Source of the DNA: an uncultured Bacilli bacterium
GTDB taxonomy: Bacteria; Bacillota_I; Bacilli_A; RFN20; CAG-826
DNA: 64,000 bases
Reading direction: 5' to 3'
NCBI GenBank assembly: GCA_944372115.1
Contig: CALVYH010000002.1
Coordinates: 104,864-168,863 of the forward strand
The notes under the pieces are model-generated. The model saw only the letters and a program-made list of their open reading frames with translations, was not told the origin of the DNA and made no database searches. How positions within the stretch are numbered: the stretch's first letter is position 1; every line of letters starts with the position of its first letter. A program made the translations under genes and the position numbers. Below, in pieces: positions 7,045-56,676 of the stretch.

Positions 7045-8376
7045 ATGGAAATTAAATTTTATAACTCATTGACTAATAAAATTGAAGAATTCAAGCCTAT
7101 TAAAGAAGGCGAAGTTTCAATTTATGTATGCGGACCTACAGTTTATAATTTTCCCCACATTGGAAATATTAGACCCGTTGTCTTTTTTGATACCTTAAGA
7201 AAATTTTTAGAAGCAGTTGGCTATAAAGTCACTTATATTTCAAATTTTACTGATGTCGATGATAAAATTATTAATAAAGCTCAAGAAGAAAAAATAACCG
7301 AAAAAGAATTAACTGATTATTATATTAACGAATATTTAAAAACACTTGATGATTTTCATGTAAAAAGAGCTTCAGAAAATCCACGTGTAAGTGAATACAT
7401 GAATCAAATCATTACTTATATTAATGAATTGGTTGAAAAAGGTAGCGCTTATGTTAATGATGGAGAAGTATTTTTTGATGTTTTAAGCGATAAAAAGTAT
7501 GGAGAGTTATCTAAAATTAACTTAGACGACCTTATTAATGGCGCTCGTATTGATGTTAATGAGAAGAAAAAATCCCCACTAGATTTTTTACTTTGGAAAG
7601 ATACAAAGGTAGGAATTAAATGGAATTCACCTTGGGGTGAAGGACGCCCAGGATGGCATACTGAATGTTGCGTTATGATCCATTCAATTTTTAAAGGAAA
7701 AATCGATATTCATGGCGGAGGAAGCGATTTAAAATTCCCACATCATGAAAACGAAATCGCTCAAAGCGAAGCTCATGATGGTAATGCTTTAGCAAATTTT
7801 TGGATTCATAACGCTATGATGAATATTAATGGCGATAAAATGTCTAAATCTTTAGGAAATGTTATTTTAGCTAAAGATGCAGTTAAAGAATATGGCGCTA
7901 ATTTAACAAGATTGTTACTTTTAAACGCTCCTTATCGCTCAATTATCGATTTTAGTGATGAATCTTTACAAAATAACAGAGCAATTTTAAATAAAATTGA
8001 ATTCGTTATAAAACAATCCAATCTTTTATTGAATTTAAATAAGATAGATTTAGATGGTGATGCAATTAAAATTAATCCTTTTTTAGAAGCTTTAAGTAAC
8101 GACATGAATATTCCAAACGGAATTACATACTTACTTGATTTAATTAAAGAATCAAACATCGAAATTAGAAAAAAAGATAGAAATTTAAATGTAATTGCAT
8201 CAAATTTTTATACAATTAATAAAATTTTATATATTTTAGGAATAGAGGTTCCTTATAGAAAATTTGATGATGATGAAATTGCTTTATATAACCAATATAT
8301 GGAAGCAAAAGCTAATAAAAACTTTGAACTTTCTGATTCTTTAAGAGATGAACTTATAAAAAAGGGTTTATTATAG
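7045..8376 (+). CDS. cysS: Cysteinyl-tRNA synthetase
   Basis: Motifs YVCGPTVYNFPHIGN and DKMSKSLGN are present. MEIKFYNSLT aligns with the canonical CysRS N-terminus, so the in-frame ATG at 6991 is less likely the start. Confidence 0.9.
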   Translation: MEIKFYNSLTNKIEEFKPIKEGEVSIYVCGPTVYNFPHIGNIRPVVFFDTLRKFLEAVGYKVTYISNFTDVDDKIINKAQEEKITEKELTDYYINEYLKTLDDFHVKRASENPRVSEYMNQIITYINELVEKGSAYVNDGEVFFDVLSDKKYGELSKINLDDLINGARIDVNEKKKSPLDFLLWKDTKVGIKWNSPWGEGRPGWHTECCVMIHSIFKGKIDIHGGGSDLKFPHHENEIAQSEAHDGNALANFWIHNAMMNINGDKMSKSLGNVILAKDAVKEYGANLTRLLLLNAPYRSIIDFSDESLQNNRAILNKIEFVIKQSNLLLNLNKIDLDGDAIKINPFLEALSNDMNIPNGITYLLDLIKESNIEIRKKDRNLNVIASNFYTINKILYILGIEVPYRKFDDDEIALYNQYMEAKANKNFELSDSLRDELIKKGLL

Positions 8377-12996: not shown

Positions 12997-13126
12997 TTAA
13001 ATTAGTTTTGTAGGATAAATATACCAAAGACAGTAACGGGTTTAGCCTTAATTATGTTACCGAGGTTAAAAATAGATAAATTAAACCTTATTGTATATAT
13101 ATCCTCAATATATAAGGAGGTAAAAG
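12997..13126 (+). promoter_or_regulatory. Probable ribosomal protein L10 leader (autoregulatory rplJ 5' UTR)
   Basis: 130-nt structured leader (ccaaagacagtaacggg...gttaccgagg) lies between rplA and rplJ, where L10 leaders sit in Firmicutes. Confidence 0.35.
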
Positions 13127-31527: not shown

Positions 31528-31584
31528 ATTATATAAAAAAATACTTGCTAAATTATAAAATTCTATTAATATATTGATTTGTAA

Positions 31585-31800
31585 AGATTGATAGAGGCGC
31601 GATTACGATTAGTAGTTAATGGAGGAGACGTCCGATGAAGTTAATGAAAGGCAAAATCGCCGAAACAAATTCAAGGTATTGGATTTGATTGGGCTATGGG
31701 AGAACATCCTTTAGACTCCTAGTTTATCTAGAGGCGCTATCGGTGTGAATCTTCTTAATGAAAATTATAGATTGCATCGAGCGATGCAATCTTTTATTTT
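31585..31800 (+). promoter_or_regulatory. Lysine riboswitch (L-box) with terminator-type expression platform, upstream of an amino-acid ABC transporter operon
   Basis: The 5' AGAGGCGCG, ...TTAGTAG...GGAGGAG..., ATCGCCGAAAC, and 3' CTAGAGGCGCTATCGGTGTGAAT segments match the conserved L-box pattern. In B. subtilis lysC the equivalents are AGAGGTGCG, AGAGTA, GTCGCCGAAG and GGAGGGCTATCTCG. A terminator hairpin attgcatcg agc gatgcaat plus a T-run sits at about 31770-31799, directly before the transporter RBS. Confidence 0.6.
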
Positions 31801-42217: not shown

Positions 42218-42294
42218 TGGGGCGAAATACCGGGATCGAACCGGTGAATGCTTGGTTCACAGCCAAGTGAGTTAACCGCTTCTCCAATTTCGCC
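42218..42294 (-). tRNA. tRNA-His (anticodon GTG) with encoded G-1 and CCA
   Basis: The reverse complement reads G-GCGAAAT...CTTGG CTGTGAA CCAAG...GGTTCGATCCCGG...ATTTCGC-C-CCA. Anticodon loop CUGUGAA gives GUG. An extra 5' G pairs with discriminator C73. Confidence 0.85.
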
Positions 42295-43344: not shown

Positions 43345-43728
43345 TTATAATTCTTTAACCCATAAACCATGAAGATTGCAGAATTCGTAAACCTTTAATG
43401 GTTTTTCATTGTCAATAAAGAAATCTGCAACAGGTTTAGATGTATGAGCTAAATCAACACGATGTGTGGCTCTATCAGTTACTAAATAAACAAAAGCGAT
43501 ATGATGTTCTTCGCTCATTGGATGTTCAACACTTCCAACTTGAACGTGAACATGATTTCCTTCAACACTTACTACTGGAACATGTTTTTCATTTGCAGCG
43601 TCAATTGAATTTGGTACTAATTCGACCATTGGTTCGCCACAACACATAGTTTGGCATCCATGTGTGCCTGGTAAAAGTTCAACGACTTTGCCACATTTAT
43701 TGCATTTAAATAATTTTAAATCTGACAT
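43345..43728 (-). CDS. dfx: Desulfoferrodoxin (2Fe superoxide reductase)
   Basis: N-terminal desulforedoxin site CNKCGKVV...GTHGCQTMCCGEPM. The C-terminal SOR domain carries HVPVV...H...H..C..H ligands. Confidence 0.85.
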   Translation of the reverse strand: MSDLKLFKCNKCGKVVELLPGTHGCQTMCCGEPMVELVPNSIDAANEKHVPVVSVEGNHVHVQVGSVEHPMSEEHHIAFVYLVTDRATHRVDLAHTSKPVADFFIDNEKPLKVYEFCNLHGLWVKEL

Positions 43729-43899
43729 ATAATTCTCCTTTATTTTGAATTTAATTTAATTATAAATAATTAATTAAATAAATAAAGAGATATGCTTTTA
43801 AAAGATAAAAATTGTTACAAATTTTCTTAATAATATCATTATTAATAATACTTTATTAATGATATAATTTTTTTGTTCGAATAATTAGGAGAAAATACA

Positions 43900-45723
43900 A
43901 TGTATATTAAAAAATTAGTAACTAAAGATACTTATTATGTTGGTGGAAGTGACCGAAGATTGGCACTTTTTGAAAATATTTATCCTTTAACAAATGGTGT
44001 AAGTTATAACTCATATCTTATTATGGATGAAAAAACTTGCTTATTAGACACAGTTGATCCATCTGTTGAAAATGTTTTTTTTGAAAAAATAGAAGACGTT
44101 TTAAATGGAAAATCGCTTGATTATCTTATTATTAATCATATGGAACCTGACCATTCTAGCGAAATTTGTCGTGTTTTAGATAAATATCCAGAAGTAACAG
44201 TTGTAACAAGCGATAAAGCTTATACAATGTTTAAAAATTTTAATAATGGTCGAGAAATTAAAAATCTAATTTTAGTTAAAGAATTTGATACTCTTTCTTT
44301 AGGTTCTCATACTTTAACTTTTGTTATGGCTCCAATGGTTCACTGGCCAGAAGTCATGGTTACTTATGATGTAACAACAAAAACACTTTTTTCAGCAGAT
44401 GCTTTTGGTACTTTTGGTGCATTAAGCGGTAATTTATTTGCACACGAAATGAATTTTGACCATGATTATTTAGATGAAGCAAGAAGATATTATACTAATA
44501 TTGTTGGTAAATATGGTTCTCAAGTCCAAGCTATTTTAAAAAAGGCTGGAACAATTGAAATTGAAACTATATGTCCATTACACGGTCCAATTTGGAGAGA
44601 AAATTTACCTTATTTAATTAATTTTTATGATAAATGGTCAAGATATGAACCTGAAGTTCAAGGTGTTTTAATCGTTTATGGTTCAATTTATGGAAATAGT
44701 GAAAAAGTAGCTAATATGATTGCTGATGGTCTTGCAAATGAAGGCATTAGAGATATTCATATGTACGACGCTTCTAAAACAGATAAATCATATCTTGTTG
44801 CAGAGACTTTTAAATATTCGCATTTAGTTGTCGTTTCTTCAACATATAATATGGGAATTTTCACTCCAGTTGAAGAATTCTTATTAGATTTAAAATCTCA
44901 TAATATGCAAAATAGAACTGTTGCATTGGTTGAAAATGGTAGCTGGGCACCTAATTCACTTTCATTAATGAAGTGTATATTCTCTCAAATGAAAAACATG
45001 AACGTCTTAAATGATGTTTGTTTCACAATTAAATCAGCAATTAGAGAAGAACAAAAAGATAATGTCAATGCTTTAGTTCGTGAAATTGCTAAAGATTTCC
45101 CTAAAGCAACTCTTAATTCTAATCCATTATTCAATATTACTTATGGACTTTATGTTTTAACTTCAAATGATGGAAATCGCGATGATGGAATGATTTTAAA
45201 TACTATTAATCAAGTCGCTGAAAATCCAAATAAGATTATGTTCTGTGTTAATAAAAGAAATTATTCGGCAGAAGTTATTAAAAACACAAAAAAAGCCACT
45301 GTTTCAATTTTATCTACCAATACTCCTTTCTCAATTTTTAAAAATTTCGGTTTCCAATCAGGTAAAGACGTTGATAAATTTGCTAATATCTCATATACAA
45401 AACGAGATAAAAATGGGCTTTTGTATTTAACAAAATTTACAAATGCTTATATTTCATTAGATGTAAATGAAGTTATTGATTTAGGTTCACATTATGGATT
45501 TATTGCGACAATTGTAGAAACTAAACAATTAAGTAAAGAAAAATCGCTTTCTTATTCATATTATATGGATAATATAAAACCTAAACCTGCAAGAAGTGAA
45601 AAAAAGATTAATGGTTGGATTTGCAAAATTTGTGGATATATTTATGAAGGTGAAAATCTTCCTGCAGATTTTATCTGCCCATTATGCAAGCATGGCGCTG
45701 AAGATTTTGAAAGAATTAAATAA
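43900..45723 (+). CDS. Multidomain flavodiiron protein: FDP core (MBL plus flavodoxin), a flavin-reductase-like domain and a C-terminal rubredoxin
   Basis: Diiron motif NHMEPDHSSE (HxExDH) is present, with a flavodoxin-like middle. A flavin-reductase-like block LYVLTSNDGNRDDGMILNTINQV is present. Rubredoxin WICKICGYIYEG...CPLCK is present at the C-terminus. Confidence 0.85.
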   Translation: MYIKKLVTKDTYYVGGSDRRLALFENIYPLTNGVSYNSYLIMDEKTCLLDTVDPSVENVFFEKIEDVLNGKSLDYLIINHMEPDHSSEICRVLDKYPEVTVVTSDKAYTMFKNFNNGREIKNLILVKEFDTLSLGSHTLTFVMAPMVHWPEVMVTYDVTTKTLFSADAFGTFGALSGNLFAHEMNFDHDYLDEARRYYTNIVGKYGSQVQAILKKAGTIEIETICPLHGPIWRENLPYLINFYDKWSRYEPEVQGVLIVYGSIYGNSEKVANMIADGLANEGIRDIHMYDASKTDKSYLVAETFKYSHLVVVSSTYNMGIFTPVEEFLLDLKSHNMQNRTVALVENGSWAPNSLSLMKCIFSQMKNMNVLNDVCFTIKSAIREEQKDNVNALVREIAKDFPKATLNSNPLFNITYGLYVLTSNDGNRDDGMILNTINQVAENPNKIMFCVNKRNYSAEVIKNTKKATVSILSTNTPFSIFKNFGFQSGKDVDKFANISYTKRDKNGLLYLTKFTNAYISLDVNEVIDLGSHYGFIATIVETKQLSKEKSLSYSYYMDNIKPKPARSEKKINGWICKICGYIYEGENLPADFICPLCKHGAEDFERIK

Positions 45724-50269: not shown

Positions 50270-51745
50270 ATGAATAAATATGTTTTAACAATTGATCAAG
50301 GAACAACATCAACAAGAGCTTCTTTAATTGATAAAGATGGAAATGTTTTTTATAAAGCTCAACAAGAAATAAAATGTTTTTTTCCATATGATGGATGGGT
50401 AGAACAAGATGCTATTGATGTTTGGCTTTCTGTTTTGAATGTAATTAATGATTTACTTGCAAAAACGAATCTTACCTATAAAAATATAGATTCAATTGGA
50501 TTAACAAATCAAAGGGAAACCACAATAATCTGGGATAAAAAAACTGGAGTGCCTGTATATAATGCTTTAGTTTGGCAATCACGCCAAAGTGCTTACATTT
50601 GTGATAATTTGATTGATAAAACCTCTTTTGTAAGAGAAAGGACAGGGTTAATAATTAATCCATATTTCAGCGCTTCAAAAATTAGATTTATTCTAGATCA
50701 TATTGAAAACGGTCAAAAACGAGCTGAAGATGGTGAATTGATGTTTGGAACAATCGATACGTGGATAATGTATAAATTATCTAATGGTAAAATTTTTAAA
50801 ACAGATATTACAAATGCTTCTAGAACAATGCTTTTTAATATCAACACGTTAAAATGGGATGATGATTTATTAAAATTATTTAATATTCCAAAATGCATGT
50901 TGCCTGAAGTTTGCCCTTCTTCTTATAATTTTGGTTATGCTTCATTGTTAAAAAAGAATTTGAAAATTTGTGGCGTCGCCGGGGATCAACAAGCTGCGTT
51001 ATTCGGACAAAACTGTATTAAAGAAGGAGATGTTAAATCTACTTATGGCACTGGTTGTTTCGTTTTAATGAACATAGGAGATAAACCTATATTTGATCAA
51101 GGAGGATTAATTACAACAATCGCTTGGCAAATTGGAAATGAAGTTACTTATGCAATTGAAGGCTCTGTTTTTGTTGGAGGAGCGGCAATTCAATGGCTTA
51201 GAGATCAGATGAGAATGTTTAAAAAAGCTTCAGATAGTGAAAAATATGCTAGAAATTGTGAGAATTCACTTGGCGTTTATGTCGTTCCTGCATTTGTTGG
51301 TCTTGGAGCCCCTTATTGGGATGATGATTGTCGAGGAGCTGTGTTCGGTTTAACAAGGGCAACAACAAAAGAGCACTTTATTAGAGCAACACTCAATTCA
51401 ATTGCTCTCCAAACCAAAGATGTAATCAAAGAAATGGAAAGAATTTCTAATAAAAAGATTGAAAGTTTAAGAGTGGACGGAGGCGCAAGTGAAAATTCAT
51501 ATTTAATGCAATATCAATCTGATATTTTATCTTCAAAAGTAATATTACCAAAAAATTTGGAAACGACATCTTTAGGTGCTGCTTATTTAGCAGGTTTAGC
51601 ATCTGGATATTGGAAGGATGTCAATGAAATATCTAAAGTTCATAAAATTTCAAAAATTTATAATCCAAAAATGAGTAATGAAGAAATTATTGAAATTGAT
51701 AATAAATGGAAAAAAGCTGTTGCTGCAACTAGACTTTTTAAATAA
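50270..51745 (+). CDS. glpK: Glycerol kinase
   Basis: Motif IDQGTTSTRASLID and the FGGY fold are present. 491 aa. Confidence 0.95.
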   Translation: MNKYVLTIDQGTTSTRASLIDKDGNVFYKAQQEIKCFFPYDGWVEQDAIDVWLSVLNVINDLLAKTNLTYKNIDSIGLTNQRETTIIWDKKTGVPVYNALVWQSRQSAYICDNLIDKTSFVRERTGLIINPYFSASKIRFILDHIENGQKRAEDGELMFGTIDTWIMYKLSNGKIFKTDITNASRTMLFNINTLKWDDDLLKLFNIPKCMLPEVCPSSYNFGYASLLKKNLKICGVAGDQQAALFGQNCIKEGDVKSTYGTGCFVLMNIGDKPIFDQGGLITTIAWQIGNEVTYAIEGSVFVGGAAIQWLRDQMRMFKKASDSEKYARNCENSLGVYVVPAFVGLGAPYWDDDCRGAVFGLTRATTKEHFIRATLNSIALQTKDVIKEMERISNKKIESLRVDGGASENSYLMQYQSDILSSKVILPKNLETTSLGAAYLAGLASGYWKDVNEISKVHKISKIYNPKMSNEEIIEIDNKWKKAVAATRLFK

Positions 51746-51772: not shown

Positions 51773-52483
51773 ATGCTTTCAAAAACTGAAACAACGCATT
51801 TAAATAATCATGAAAAATATTTAAGCAATAGAAAGAAAGTCGCTTTAAATGCATTAACATCTGTTTCTTATTGCGAATTCTATTATTTTTTAAATACTTT
51901 TAGAGATCAACATGATTTTATTAAGATTAATAATAATATTGATTTCTTGATTAATTTGTTTGATAAATATTCTGTTTCTGAAAATAAAATATTTCATTTT
52001 AAATATAAAAATTATAATTTTGTTGTTCCAACAAAATACTTTATTAAAACAAATGAATTAACATTAGTCATATTAAATAAGCACGTTTTATCAGAAAATT
52101 ATGCTTTTATATGTTTATGTTTATTTATTGAAAATGGAATTTTACCTGATGGAATTTATTATCTTGATAACGACGAGAAATATCATTCTTTGAATGGACT
52201 TACTAATTTAGATAAAGATTTTTCAAATATAAACCCAAATATATTATCAACGCTTGTTTATTGTGTAAATAAATTAAAGAAAAATAAGAGAACAAATAAA
52301 ATAAATACAAAATCTAAAGGCTTTTATTTTAGTCAAATCGAAGCTGGTAAAATACTTGATAGGTTAATTAAAACTATTTTAAAAGGCAAATTTAAGAAAG
52401 AAACAAGCCAAAAATGTAAATATTGTAAGATAAGAAATAAATGTAATACTTTTTTAGAAGATGAAACATTTAATTTATATTAA
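51773..52483 (+). CDS. Cas4-like/PD-(D/E)xK nuclease-domain protein with Fe-S cysteine motif (standalone)
   Basis: An N-terminal Cys (VSYCEF) is present. Putative nuclease acidic residues lie in ILPDG and YYLDNDEK. A C-terminal CKYCKIRNKC (C-x2-C-x5-C) follows the Cas4/AddB/Dna2 pattern. Confidence 0.45.
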   Translation: MLSKTETTHLNNHEKYLSNRKKVALNALTSVSYCEFYYFLNTFRDQHDFIKINNNIDFLINLFDKYSVSENKIFHFKYKNYNFVVPTKYFIKTNELTLVILNKHVLSENYAFICLCLFIENGILPDGIYYLDNDEKYHSLNGLTNLDKDFSNINPNILSTLVYCVNKLKKNKRTNKINTKSKGFYFSQIEAGKILDRLIKTILKGKFKKETSQKCKYCKIRNKCNTFLEDETFNLY

Positions 52484-53876
52484 TGATAAAAATAGATATA
52501 TTTTAGAAAATTTAAGTGAAGTGGATTTATTAAATCCATTTTATTTTGACGTTGTTATTAAAAATGAGGACGATTTATTAATTTTTTTTGATCGAATCAA
52601 TCTTGATTTATTAAAAGATTTTGAAAAAAACAAAGATTACGAAGCCCCTTTATCAATTGCTTTAAATCTTTCAAATTCATTTATTAATGATAATAAAAAA
52701 ATTTTTATAAAGAAAAAGAATGTAATTATTGAAGAAGAGGAACAATTTTTATTTTCGTTAGTTAGAACTTTAATAAATAATCAAAAGAATTCCTCTAGAA
52801 TTATTAGTATACGTAATATAAATCGTTTATTAAAAACTCGTGATTATAAAGGTTTAATTGATAATTTATCTTTAATTAATAAGAAAAATTTTCAAAACAA
52901 ACCTTTTTCATTTGTGATTTTATTTTTAAATCGTTTAGATGTTTTAAAATATTTAAAAATAAATTCGTTACCAGCTTTTAAATATAGTTCTACAAATGTA
53001 ATTAATACAAAGATTTTAACTTCATTAAATGATAATGAAACTTATTTAGAAATGTTTTTAAAAGCGGTTTCAAATAATAAATTTAGTTTTAATTTTTATA
53101 AAACCATTAATAATATTGATATTAAAAATGATAATTATGATAATTTTTTAAATTTAATAATTAAAGGGATACACTTTCAAATTGATTGTTTTATTTTTGA
53201 AGATGAAGATGATTTTAATGAATTTATTAATAATATGAATTTAATTAATAAGAAGGTTTTTTATTATTCTCCTTTAAAAAAGAAATTATTAAACTATTTA
53301 TTAAAAGTTTTAAAAGTAATTTTAAATAAAGATGATAAAGAAGATTTAGATTTTTTAAGATTATTATCAAAAGATAAAATTTTAAAATTTTTAAAAAACT
53401 TTCATTCTTTCAATGCCTATGATTTTTTAAATAAGCTTAACGAAGAAGTAAATTTATTTAATTTGTATTCCGATACAGATGATAAAATGTTATTAAATAC
53501 TTTGTTAACTTTTTTAAAGAAAAAAGCTCTAAATATTGAAAGATTTTATTTTTTTATTACATTTTTACTAGCAATAAGATTTAAAAAAGAAATTAATGAA
53601 GTAGCGAATATTAAAGCAATAAAATTAGATGATTTGCATTTACTTAATTTAAATAATTTAATAGTTGGATTTATCAGTACAAAAAAGAAGAAAAATTATA
53701 ATAATGAAGTTATGTATAAAAGCATCATTTTAAAAAATTATATATTTTTTAACGAAATTTTAAAAAAATCTAAATTAATTTATTTTTATCAATATGATAG
53801 TTATTCTAGTATTGAATTATTGGCTTCACATTTAGACGAAGTTTCACTATTTTTCGATTTAGTTAAATATTTATAG
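52461..53876 (+). CDS. Hypothetical protein, 471 aa, Leu/Asn/Lys-rich, no recognisable domain
   Basis: Long uninterrupted ORF in a very AT-rich stretch. It overlaps the upstream gene by 23 nt in another frame. No nucleotide-binding or catalytic motif was found by eye. Confidence 0.45.
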   Translation: MKHLIYINDKNRYILENLSEVDLLNPFYFDVVIKNEDDLLIFFDRINLDLLKDFEKNKDYEAPLSIALNLSNSFINDNKKIFIKKKNVIIEEEEQFLFSLVRTLINNQKNSSRIISIRNINRLLKTRDYKGLIDNLSLINKKNFQNKPFSFVILFLNRLDVLKYLKINSLPAFKYSSTNVINTKILTSLNDNETYLEMFLKAVSNNKFSFNFYKTINNIDIKNDNYDNFLNLIIKGIHFQIDCFIFEDEDDFNEFINNMNLINKKVFYYSPLKKKLLNYLLKVLKVILNKDDKEDLDFLRLLSKDKILKFLKNFHSFNAYDFLNKLNEEVNLFNLYSDTDDKMLLNTLLTFLKKKALNIERFYFFITFLLAIRFKKEINEVANIKAIKLDDLHLLNLNNLIVGFISTKKKKNYNNEVMYKSIILKNYIFFNEILKKSKLIYFYQYDSYSSIELLASHLDEVSLFFDLVKYL

Positions 53877-53912: not shown

Positions 53913-55067
53913 ATGGAAGTTAAAAAAGTAAATAAAACTCAATTATCAAATATTTTAAAAGGTCTAAATTCTTCTAAAGACGTTTTTCTTTTTGTTGACC
54001 AAATTTATGAAATTTATGATTGTGTTTGCGAAGGGATAGAAGAAGTAATGAAAATTACAGAATTTAAAGAATATACTTACGTAAATCCAGTCGTAATTAT
54101 TTTATATATTGTTAATGAACTAAATTTTTATTTTAAAAGCCGTGGTTTTGATAATGTTAAAATAGCTGAATTTTTGAATACAGATAGTTTTGTTGAATTT
54201 ATATCCTCAATAGTTTGCGATAAATATTTAACAAACGAACAATTAAATTATAAATCCCCAGCATTTTTAAATAAATTTAATCCTCAAATTTCGACTTTAT
54301 CTTTATATTTTAATTTTTGTCTTAATATTTTAAATAAATCATATAAATTGAATAAATATGATGCATTAGTTAAAGACATGCTTAAAAATTCTTTTTCCTT
54401 AGGTCAATGCATTGAAAATCTTTTGATTAACGCTTTCGATGTCGAGGCTTTTTCTACCTGGAGAACAATGCATGAAAATGAATGCATACTATATTGTCTT
54501 GTATTAAATGGGAAAGATACTTTTGACTCTTATTTTAAACATATTCAATATTCTTTAGCTTATCGTGGCCAAATTAAAAATAAAGAAAAAACCGATAAAG
54601 TATTTGAAGAAATTAAATCACAAATGAAGGAATATAACTTGAAAAGTAAAGATATGAAGAAATTTATTGAATATGGATATCTATTTTCAATAAAAAACAA
54701 AGAATTTAATGTCGATTTTAAACTTAATTTTAGAGATGGAGTTGAAGCGATGGCGGGATTAAAATCATATTCAAAAATATATGAATTATCTAGCGAAATT
54801 GCACATTCTTCACCATTATTAATTTATTCGAATCGTGAATATTATTTTAATATTACTTTATTAAATTTATATGAAACATTTTTTAGATTAGAAAAAGTTT
54901 TCTATACTTTTTATAAATCAGTATCAAAAAAAGATGAAGTCGAGCAATATGAAACTTTACAAAAAATTTATATTAATCAACTTCATCAAATTCATAATGG
55001 TTTAGCTGCTTTATTTAAAGATAGATTTTTTAAGATTGAACATCTCGATAGCAAGAGCCACCTATAA
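53913..55067 (+). CDS. Hypothetical protein, 384 aa, no recognisable domain
   Basis: Long ORF with an RBS-like aaggatggaag upstream. Its 3' end overlaps the convergent kinase gene by about 38 nt. Confidence 0.45.
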   Translation: MEVKKVNKTQLSNILKGLNSSKDVFLFVDQIYEIYDCVCEGIEEVMKITEFKEYTYVNPVVIILYIVNELNFYFKSRGFDNVKIAEFLNTDSFVEFISSIVCDKYLTNEQLNYKSPAFLNKFNPQISTLSLYFNFCLNILNKSYKLNKYDALVKDMLKNSFSLGQCIENLLINAFDVEAFSTWRTMHENECILYCLVLNGKDTFDSYFKHIQYSLAYRGQIKNKEKTDKVFEEIKSQMKEYNLKSKDMKKFIEYGYLFSIKNKEFNVDFKLNFRDGVEAMAGLKSYSKIYELSSEIAHSSPLLIYSNREYYFNITLLNLYETFFRLEKVFYTFYKSVSKKDEVEQYETLQKIYINQLHQIHNGLAALFKDRFFKIEHLDSKSHL

Positions 55068-56676
55068 ATTCTTTTAATATAGAATTACATGGAATATATT
55101 CTTCATTAATGTCGCTAAAATATTTTAATAATTTTAATAATCTTTCTGCATCAGGACCATATTTACTATCACGATCAATTTTTAATAATAAAGGTGTAGC
55201 ATATTTTTTCATAACCCCGATTTCATAATTTAAGAAGGAATCAAATACATAATCGGCAAATTCTTGAGTTTTATAGATCCATTTAAATTCACCTCTTCTA
55301 ACTGATGGCCACATTGAAAGTGTCTCTTCTGCCGAAGAATTACGATATTTTGAATCTCTTACAATTCTTCTAAGTAATCTAATATCAGTAATCGAAATAG
55401 GGTTTTCATAATCTAAATTGATTTGAGCTTGTGGCGAAATATAGATTTTATATTTGATGTGTTTAGGAATTAAAGGTGTCATTGCTTCATTTAAAGCGTG
55501 GATTCCTTCAATAATAATAGGATCTTTTGGCCCGATTTTTACTAATCTATTAAAAATTCTCGAATTTGTTTTAAAATCGAATGTTGGTAAATTTACTTCT
55601 TCACCGCTTAATAAAGAAAGCAAATTTTGATTAAATAGTTCAATATCTAATGCATCGATACTTTCGAAATCATAATTTCCATCTTCATCTAAAGGCACAT
55701 TTTCCCTAGTTTTATAATAATCATCGATAGAAATTCTAATTGGTTTTATTCCTCTAGAAATAAGTTCGAGAGTTAAACGATCGGCAAAAGTAGTTTTTCC
55801 GCTACTTGAAGGGCCGGCTATACAAATTAATTTAATATTGTTTATTTTGTCTTGAATTTTTTGTCCGAGTTCAACAAGCATCCTATTATGTCTATTCTCA
55901 CAAATATTTATTAAGTTAGTTCCTTGATTTTCTTTTGCTCTATCATTAATTTCTGCAATTGTTGAAAGTTTTACTAAAGATGACCATGCATCGCTTCCTT
56001 CAAGAGTATCTTGGAAAATAGGTTCGTCCTTAAAAGGAGGGATTTCTCCATTAAATTCTGAACGTGGATATTGAATTAAAATTCCTGGTGGATAAAAGAT
56101 TAGTTTAAAATTCTTTAAATAACCAGTTGATGGAACCATTTTTCCATACATATAGTTAAAATAATTATCTGCTTTATATAAATGGACAGTTTTTTCTGGT
56201 CGATATTGTAATACAGCTAATTTATCGTATAGTTTAAATTCTTTATATAATTTTGCCGCTTCTTCATTGCTTATAATAAGTCGTTCAAAAATATAATCAT
56301 TATCAACAATTTTCTTCATTTCTTGATAAATTTCATTTACGACTTGAGTAGTAATACTTTTATTTCCGATTTCAACATGGGCAAAAATTGAGCGAGATAT
56401 AGAATAAGAGAAACGGAATTTTATATCTGGATATAGTCTTTGAGCGGCCATTGCGAATAAAAATCTTATTCCTCTTTCATAAATTCCAGCTGCAGGTTGA
56501 TCTTGGGTTGTTAAAAATTTAACGGTTGCATCGTAATGTAAGTCATAATCTAATTCTCTTACTCTTCCATTAACAAGTGCGCAAATTACCGAATAATCGG
56601 AATTTGTTAAGTCTTTTAATTTGATTTTTCTATCAAAATATAATTCTTTAGAGTCTAAAAAAACAGTAAATCCCAT
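55030..56676 (-). CDS. Uridine kinase/phosphoribulokinase-family nucleoside kinase with N-terminal TGS/ThrRS-like extension
   Basis: P-loop CIAGPSSSGKTTFADRL in the C-terminal half. A roughly 280-aa N-terminal domain of ThrRS-N/TGS-like character is present. 548 aa. Confidence 0.65.
   Translation of the reverse strand: MGFTVFLDSKELYFDRKIKLKDLTNSDYSVICALVNGRVRELDYDLHYDATVKFLTTQDQPAAGIYERGIRFLFAMAAQRLYPDIKFRFSYSISRSIFAHVEIGNKSITTQVVNEIYQEMKKIVDNDYIFERLIISNEEAAKLYKEFKLYDKLAVLQYRPEKTVHLYKADNYFNYMYGKMVPSTGYLKNFKLIFYPPGILIQYPRSEFNGEIPPFKDEPIFQDTLEGSDAWSSLVKLSTIAEINDRAKENQGTNLINICENRHNRMLVELGQKIQDKINNIKLICIAGPSSSGKTTFADRLTLELISRGIKPIRISIDDYYKTRENVPLDEDGNYDFESIDALDIELFNQNLLSLLSGEEVNLPTFDFKTNSRIFNRLVKIGPKDPIIIEGIHALNEAMTPLIPKHIKYKIYISPQAQINLDYENPISITDIRLLRRIVRDSKYRNSSAEETLSMWPSVRRGEFKWIYKTQEFADYVFDSFLNYEIGVMKKYATPLLLKIDRDSKYGPDAERLLKLLKYFSDINEEYIPCNSILKEFIGGSCYRDVQS

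Follow-up and report, generated by a model that had tools for sequence, protein, structure and literature searches.

The DNA analysed here is a 64-kb stretch of contig CALVYH010000002.1, referred to throughout as the window. It has a guanine-plus-cytosine (GC) content of 28%, is read cleanly with the standard bacterial code, and contains rpoB/rpoC-size genes, an L10 leader, a lysine riboswitch and an ATP synthase operon, a combination that indicates the core chromosome of a Bacillota/Mollicutes-like organism. The gene of interest is an orphan that encodes a protein of 236 amino acids (aa) with a Cas4-like set of cysteines; it lies between the glycerol kinase gene, glpK, and a second orphan gene, p471. 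An earlier annotation of this DNA by a model that was given only the letters and their reading frames (the sequence-only reading) had described a standalone Cas4-like nuclease at this position. Both the open reading frame (ORF) and its cysteine pattern were genuine; the frame was intact and its start and stop codons were located. The gene and its relevant segments are as follows.

51773..52483, + strand: Cas4-like cysteine gene, a 236-aa orphan ORF (ATG at 51773, TAA at 52481-52483)
51872..51874, + strand: codon of the invariant N-terminal cysteine C34, which lies in the motif L-x-x-L-x-x-x-S-[YF]-C-x-F-x-x-[FY]-L
52013..52081, + strand: predicted beta-hairpin, YNFVVPTKYFIK-TNE-LTLVILNK, residues 81-103
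52145..52180, + strand: PDGIYYLDNDEK, residues 125-136, with the candidate acidic residues of the sequence-only reading (PDG, 125-127; LDNDEK, 131-136)
52190..52237, + strand: the best-conserved block of the family, L140-x-G-[LF]-T-N-L-D147-x-x-F-x-x-[IV]-[DN]-P155, residues 140-155, which holds the invariant D147
52415..52444, + strand: C-terminal block C215-x2-C218-x5-C224 (CKYCKIRNKC), three invariant cysteines, 12 residues before the C-terminus

The GC content of the gene was 20.1%, compared to 26-31% in the conserved neighbouring genes. The encoded protein had a net charge of +13, with K, N, I, F, Y and L making up 59% of its residues, and contained seven cysteines, at residues 34, 114, 116, 164, 215, 218 and 224.

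A word-indexed homologue search returned three clusters, namely the window protein itself, one that was 75% identical and one that was 64% identical. An exhaustive hidden Markov model (HMM) search over 1.84 billion representatives added just two more (P0004, 328 aa, and P0005, 325 aa), at approximately 30-35% identity, and a second profile search at E values up to 10 recovered no further relatives. Since the searches ended at five clusters, the family is extremely narrow; it consists of five 50-90% identity clusters and includes no larger or annotated relative from which a function could be borrowed. In an alignment of the window protein with its relatives at 75, 64, 35 and 30% identity, 42 columns were invariant. 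The only invariant cysteines were C34, C215, C218 and C224, while C114, C116 and C164 varied. All five members therefore carried the four-cysteine arrangement of Cas4, which is a single N-terminal cysteine and a C-terminal C-x2-C-x5-C.

The sequence around C34 ('...LTSVSYCEFYYFL') resembled the first-helix cysteine motif of Cas4 ('LNAWEYCHRRFYL'), the two being colinear in alignment but with a score at the null level; in P0005 this motif has the classic 'F-C-P-F' form. The pattern C..C.....C had a single occurrence in the window's 65 ORF segments of 100 aa or more and arose in 0.37% of 200,000 shuffles of the 236-aa protein, indicating that it is beyond chance. The persistence of four G/C-containing cysteine codons in so AT-rich a gene is telling in itself. 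Among the three closer lineages the ratio of nonsynonymous to synonymous substitution (dN/dS) of the gene was 0.19-0.26, which marks purifying selection, compared to 0.05 for glpK and 0.07-0.09 for the DUF5677 gene downstream; the ratios are rough, since dS was 0.7-1.4 and near saturation. The gene is weakly constrained yet clearly maintained.

The two distant relatives differed from the window protein at the N-terminus. Residues 1 to approximately 100 of P0004 and 1 to approximately 120 of P0005 (loci L005 and L007, from position 8001) form an extra region of approximately 90-100 aa with the motif '...Y-P-[RK]-Y-Y-x-F...', which the window clade has lost; the window protein begins at the equivalent of residue ~88, 27 nucleotides (nt) after glpK. 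No family match was obtained for this extension, and a relationship between it and the N-terminus of p471, of the kind in which AddA and AddB share a domain, was not significant (P 0.31).

The 236-aa protein and its four relatives were scanned against Pfam, NCBIfam, PHROGs and PADLOC; all matches were sub-threshold and all were C-terminal. In the Pfam check suggested by the sequence-only reading, PDDEXK_1 matched the cysteine block weakly, profile positions 212-247 (of 247) aligning with protein residues 190-225 at E 0.054 and 13.9 bits where the cut-off is 22, with an E value of 0.23 for P0002 and no match for P0003, P0004 or P0005, whereas Cas_Cas4 (PF01930) did not match at all and the curated threshold for the Cas4 family was accordingly not reached. 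Three PHROG exonuclease families (69, 1870 and 20376) were matched with a best E of 0.0029; the one match for which coordinates were given, that of phrog_69/1870 on the window protein, lay in the C-terminal block. NCBIfam and PADLOC gave nothing relevant, with one chance match (NF058537, E 0.06). The 1 + 3 cysteine arrangement noted by the sequence-only reading was borne out as strictly conserved, and its C-terminal block is all that sequence models pick up in the protein, as the C-terminal iron-sulphur (Fe-S) block of Cas4/RecB-like exonucleases.

Cas4 comparators were COG1468/PF01930, the type I-D Cas4 of Synechocystis pSYSA, the G. sulfurreducens Cas4-Cas1 protein (7MI4), a type I-C protein (8D3L) and SSO0001 (4IC1). 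A Cas4 profile was assembled from the pSYSA cas4 product, 75 metagenomic type I-D Cas4 proteins and, in addition, the Cas4 portions of 7MI4 and 8D3L, the stated total being 77 Cas4 sequences. When the whole A2 alignment was compared with this profile using hhalign, a score of 24.3 (P 0.0078) was obtained, with residues 210-227 aligned to Cas4 166-183; the null score was 12.8 ± 2.4 (maximum 22.4) and none of 150 shuffles reached 24.3. The C-terminal segment (residues 185-236) scored 23.6 against a null of 11.1 ± 3.0, a value reached by none of 60 shuffles, and aligned over residues 206-230 to Cas4 162-186. Scores for the remainder of the protein were at the null level, namely 8.7 against 9.2 ± 1.7 for the N-terminal segment (15-60) and 9.5 against 11.7 ± 2.1 for the core (60-145), though their best local alignments fell at colinear Cas4 places (21-45 to Cas4 3-27 and 80-144 to Cas4 81-139, respectively).

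The window protein is like Cas4 in its size (approximately 190-240 aa), in having one first-helix cysteine and a C-terminal K-C-x2-C-x5-C, and in the colinearity of its predicted elements, among which an 'LCL' helix and a G-h-h-Y-Y hairpin correspond in position. Unlike Cas4, the family has no conserved His, Asp or Glu ligands (K/R88 and L/F101 stand at the predicted Asp and Glu positions), gives no Cas_Cas4 match, has an insertion of approximately 45 residues relative to type I-D Cas4 that holds a GLTNLDxxF block (the conserved residues 140-155), and has no cas1, cas2 or clustered regularly interspaced short palindromic repeats (CRISPR) nearby. AlphaFold2 was run twice on the five-sequence alignment, with either the window protein or P0005 as the leading sequence, and gave unusable models with predicted local distance difference test (pLDDT) values of 42.6 and 41.2; a Foldseek search with the first model returned noise only. 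Both low-confidence models had the same order of elements, which was an N-terminal cysteine helix, a helix, a meander of three to four strands, a helix, a strand, further helices and the cysteine block. That order would be compatible with an alpha-beta-beta-beta-alpha-beta core plus an iron staple, though it is no proof of one.

It is possible, but unlikely, that the protein has no PD-(D/E)xK fold and is an unrelated lineage-specific Zn or Fe-S protein whose C-x2-C-x5-C motif is convergent with that of Cas4. The same spacing occurs in WhiB-like proteins and in EndoIII/MutY, the above-null similarity to Cas4 covers only about 25 residues, and the failure of Cas_Cas4 to match, the PDDEXK_1 score below its cut-off, the absence of sequence matches in the PDB and the lack of a usable structure model are all as such a protein would predict. 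The position of the fourth ligand argues otherwise: it lies approximately 180 residues upstream in a predicted helix, in the [YF]-C-x-F context seen in Cas4 and AddB, whereas it is 14-22 residues upstream in WhiB and six in EndoIII. Furthermore, the weak matches in three independent libraries were all to exonuclease or PD-(D/E)xK families at their C-terminal end, and the predicted order of secondary structure and the colinearity of the segments fit Cas4. That the 236-aa protein truly has the Cas4/AddB fold was considered somewhat more likely than not.

The sequence-only reading had nominated PDG and LDNDEK as nuclease acidic residues, an assignment that did not survive comparison of the five members. 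Position 125 was P/P/L/I/I, position 126 D/D/D/D/N, position 132 D/D/N/S/N, position 134 D/N/N/E/E and position 135 E/E/E/N/E; within residues 125-136 just G127 and K136 were invariant. These residues aligned instead to the Cas4 beta-hairpin 'YGEIFYYGNRRRQ', which comes after the Q-helix and is non-catalytic. Greedy hhalign alignment and inspection by eye both paired 'DGIYYLDNDEKYHSL' with this hairpin and not with the active site; its pattern, 'G-x-h-F-Y-Y', takes the form 'GEIFYYGNRRRQPVEF' in type I-D Cas4 and 'KGYLFYNEIKHRVEV' in the type I-C protein. In the alignment as a whole, E70 and D147 were the only invariant acidic residues, and there was no conserved D...ExK anywhere.

The catalytic motifs of Cas4 (His, Asp and Glu-x-Lys) were therefore lacking from the family. 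These motifs are reported as conserved in an alignment of 7,060 identified Cas4 proteins (PMC5704561), and the active site of SSO0001, as summarised in PMC13621843, comprises His62, Asp99, Glu113 and Lys115. The predicted hairpin at residues 81-103 is exactly as long as the Cas4 motif II/III hairpin, 'LKVKGIIDAVEE-SDG-LLIPVEYKK'. In a manual register of the two hairpins, the Cas4 D would correspond to K88 (K/K/K/K/R in the five members), the E to L101 (L/L/L/L/F) and the K to the invariant K103. An alternative hhalign register paired 'P-T-K-Y' with 'P-V-E-Y', and D and E were absent there too. Because the canonical metal ligands were missing in both registers, a non-catalytic protein was favoured.

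The protein might instead be a Cas4-like Fe-S nuclease that is active through a non-canonical or relocated site, formed by E70, D147, K103 or K136, or by D126 with [D/N/E]134-x-K136; it would then process DNA ends during repair or recombination, with p471 as its partner. This was judged quite unlikely. PD-(D/E)xK enzymes can relocate their catalytic residues, as in Cfr10I and NgoMIV, the cysteine module is the same as that of active Cas4, and the gene is under purifying selection. Residues 134-136 read D-E-K, N-E-K, N-E-K, E-N-K and E-E-K in the five members, with K136 invariant, and residue 126 is D in four of the five. However, none of the hairpins has an invariant acidic pair, and residues 126 and 134 are just eight residues apart with a likely turn at D132-N133, which would place them at opposite ends of a hairpin whose Cas4 counterpart is non-catalytic. 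The surveyed Cas4 proteins, moreover, all keep their catalytic motifs (PMC5704561).

The neighbours of the Cas4-like gene on the same strand are as follows.

50270..51745, + strand: glpK (glycerol kinase), the conserved upstream neighbour, with a 27-nt spacer before the Cas4-like gene
52461..53876, + strand: p471, a 471-aa orphan gene that is always directly downstream of the Cas4-like gene
53913..55067, + strand: gene for a DUF5677 protein of 384 aa, third gene of the same-strand run, highly conserved (dN/dS 0.07-0.09)

The Cas4-like gene is translationally coupled to p471; in the window and the two closest relatives they share 23 nt, and in the more distant pair of relatives a gap of 1-2 nt separates them. 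p471 has a GC content of 16.9%, and its product is 66% K, N, I, F, Y and L with a single cysteine. It evolves similarly fast to the Cas4-like gene (dN/dS 0.22-0.45), with conservation at the motifs 'FIFEDEDDF' (residues ~245-252) and 'L-Y-x-D-x-D' (335-340). Scans against Pfam, NCBIfam, PHROGs and PADLOC did not place it in any family. The sole database match of its profile was to 61 residues of a CdiI immunity protein (PDB 5T86, E 9e-4), a doubtful match that may be compositional. No Walker A (P-loop) or UvrD-type motifs were visible in the sequence or by Pfam. A reading of p471 as a DEDD exonuclease was rejected; the protein does contain 'Y336-x3-D340' and an acidic cluster, yet its acidic positions vary and there are no matches. 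From the gene arrangement alone, the Cas4-like protein and the p471 product probably form a complex.

The explanation that was tentatively preferred, as possible and close to an even chance, is that the product is a lineage-restricted Fe-S domain protein of the Cas4/AddB type, very divergent and probably without catalytic activity, that is the partner of p471. The gene would derive from, or at least carry, the 'iron-staple' module of Cas4, AddB and Dna2, which consists of the N-terminal cysteine and the C-terminal C-x2-C-x5-C. Its four cysteines would hold an Fe-S cluster that clamps the first and last helices of a degenerate RecB-like fold together. From the PD-(D/E)xK site, D and E, which bind metal, appear to have been lost (K/R88 and L/F101) and K103 kept; given that loss, the protein most likely has no nuclease function. 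A more probable role would be that of a basic, Fe-S-stabilised nucleic-acid-binding or scaffold subunit, which may bind nucleic acid, probably DNA ends or single-stranded DNA like its relatives, without cutting it, as one component of a complex with p471. The gene is chromosomal and vertically inherited in a small clade of uncultured Bacillota/Mollicutes-like bacteria with small genomes of approximately 28% GC, and is neither mobile nor a defence gene.

Several observations weigh against this explanation. Every HMM match was under its curated threshold, and the profile searches of PDB sequences (A1 and A2) yielded no Cas4, AddB, Dna2 or Exo5, and no nuclease. Outside the cysteine block the homology was without statistical support, the N-terminal and core scores being at or below the shuffle mean, and both structure models were of low confidence, with Foldseek noise. 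The description of the protein as catalytically dead hangs on an alignment that is unverifiable, and an unconventional site built from E70, D147, K103 or K136 may be possible. The proposed complex with p471, in turn, leans on gene arrangement only.

The sequence-only reading had also expected a phage or defence association, as is usual for a solo Cas4-like gene outside a CRISPR locus. The latter part was correct, in that no CRISPR array was present in the window. No cas gene was found among the Pfam-annotated genes of the syntenic stretch within approximately 10 kb, the rest of the window being without annotation. The expectation of a phage or defence gene was contradicted by the strictly syntenic, core-chromosome site that the gene occupied in five lineages. 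In each, the order was glycerol-3-phosphate dehydrogenase genes, a DUF1667 gene, an Mbeg1-like gene and glpK, followed by the Cas4-like gene, a gene of 469-471 aa without family assignment and the DUF5677 gene (384 aa), and then a convergent PRK/uridine-kinase-like gene and the ATP synthase operon. There was no terminator-like site in the spacer between glpK and the Cas4-like gene, where a promoter and terminator scan is uninformative in DNA of 28% GC.

No integrase, transposase or recombinase gene was found nearby in the syntenic stretch. PADLOC gave no match for the Cas4-like protein, p471 or DUF5677, no relative of the Cas4-like protein or p471 was present among 2.9 million viral contigs of IMG/VR, and a tblastn search of phage GenBank records gave one chance match (E 6). 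Neither a known defence system nor a Cas4 borne by a mobile genetic element was therefore indicated, there being no model match and the synteny being that of the core chromosome. Conserved synteny and the lack of PADLOC and viral relatives point to a vertically inherited chromosomal module and not to a solo Cas4 of phage or defence origin.

Whether DUF5677 forms part of the Cas4-like/p471 module is uncertain. This domain is statistically enriched beside serine recombinases in Bacillota defence islands, and the DUF5677 candidate is outside the five ORFs that were reported to be protective (PMC12632615). It is highly improbable that the Cas4-like gene is the solo Cas4 of a defence or mobile module, making up with p471 and DUF5677 an uncharacterised anti-phage system fixed in the clade, as the enrichment of DUF5677, the fast evolution and very AT-rich composition of the orphan genes and the weak p471 match to CdiI might suggest, since five lineages with saturated dS keep an identical gene order from the glycerol-catabolism genes to the ATP synthase operon, mobility genes and PADLOC or viral relatives are lacking, and the DUF5677 gene has a dN/dS of 0.07-0.09. 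Such conservation is unusual for a domain that is otherwise noted in defence islands. The 3' ends of the DUF5677 gene (53913-55067, + strand) and the convergent PRK/uridine-kinase-like gene (55030-56676, - strand) overlap by 38 nt.

Besides Cas4, the window protein was compared with three known systems. The closest Pfam likeness was to the C-terminal Fe-S nuclease domain of AddB/RexB (PF12705 PDDEXK_1; B. subtilis AddAB), which was the sole Pfam model to touch the window protein and aligned end-to-end at the cysteine block. The lineage is Bacillota in both cases, and the Cas4-like gene precedes a larger partner gene; in Firmicutes addB is followed by addA. Unlike AddB, the window protein has no helicase-like N-terminal region of approximately 800 aa, being only 236 aa long (325-328 aa in two relatives), gives no NCBIfam AddB/RexB match, and lacks the nuclease motif GRIDR...DYK; no adjacent gene matched AddA. 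The idea that the pair is an AddAB remnant was considered on the basis of motif resemblances seen by eye; these had no HMM support and the idea is speculation only.

The second system is DUF2779 (PF11074), exemplified by MMSYN1_0389 of M. mycoides JCVI-syn3.0, in which a Cas4-like domain is fused to a DEDDh exonuclease and which is quasi-essential (PMC13621843). It too is a chromosomal, non-CRISPR, Cas4-related gene of a Mollicutes-type reduced genome, with a Cas4-like part that is followed by a second part of approximately 450 aa; the two parts are fused in DUF2779 and are separate, coupled genes here. With respect to the site and the cluster the two families are mirror images, DUF2779 keeping D, E and K but only two cysteines and the window family having four cysteines and no D or E. 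No PF11074 or RNase_T-type match was obtained for either protein, p471 was without detectable DEDD motifs, and PDB profile searches with either protein did not find MrfB or Cas4. The gene pair could be a remnant of an AddB-AddA type, or equally a split DUF2779-like protein, though the searches bore out neither descent.

The third is the nucleocapsid protein TP1 of the archaeal virus TTV1, an inactivated derivative of Cas4 as cited in PMC5704561. TP1 is a precedent for a Cas4-fold protein that has turned from catalysis to a structural, DNA-binding role. In contrast to TP1, the window gene is bacterial and chromosomal and has a dedicated partner gene. By analogy, therefore, TTV1 TP1 would be nearest as an inactivated Cas4, and the DUF2779 proteins of Mollicutes would be nearest phylogenetically.

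A more far-reaching proposal, which remains doubtful, is that the family is an iron-staple domain without a nuclease site but with its Fe-S cluster, long kept as a housekeeping subunit alongside a 471-aa partner in reduced-genome Bacillota. It would be a bacterial, chromosomal case of a non-catalytic Cas4 fold, and the pair could be all that is left of an end-processing machine of the AddAB or DUF2779 kind, now serving another function. If so, selection can keep the Fe-S staple of Cas4, AddB and Dna2 without nuclease chemistry, which would bear on the long-running question of the purpose of the cluster by pointing to structure or the sensing of DNA ends and not to catalysis. It would also add a conserved orphan gene pair from very small genomes to the unexplained 'quasi-housekeeping' relatives of nucleases, such as DUF2779 in the minimal Mycoplasma. 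Practical importance is limited for now, given a tiny family with a putative fold and function.

In p471, codon 261 is TTA (Leu) in the window (53241-53243) and an in-frame TGA in two related lineages (L001, 11466-11468; L004, 11472-11474). The in-frame TGA recurs in independent assemblies (L002 and clusters P0007 and P0008, of 259 and 261 aa). Approximately 210 codons past the TGA stay open, with purifying selection evident from a dN/dS of 0.26 between the two TGA-bearing lineages, and the 26 codons directly after it are conserved. These features favour UGA read-through or recoding, or the maintenance of a split gene, over a dead pseudogene. TGA served as the stop codon of two of 50 long ORFs in the window, where read-through would add five residues to each, and of none of the long ORFs of L005-L008; such rarity is compatible with a lineage in which TGA is gradually being abandoned as a stop codon. 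The window contains no tRNA-Trp gene.

Genes for a desulfoferrodoxin and a flavodiiron/rubredoxin-type protein (43345-45723), assigned by synteny with the Pfam-annotated locus L001, adjoin the glycerol genes; they indicate that the organism lives anaerobically, a setting that makes Fe-S proteins plausible. Elsewhere in the window, the lysine riboswitch was located at 31584-31747 (+ strand, 82.7 bits) and the L10 leader at 13006-13102 (+ strand, 53.5 bits), and genes for tRNA-Ser(GGA) and tRNA-His(GUG) were found at 2149-2237 and 42218-42293, respectively, both on the - strand.

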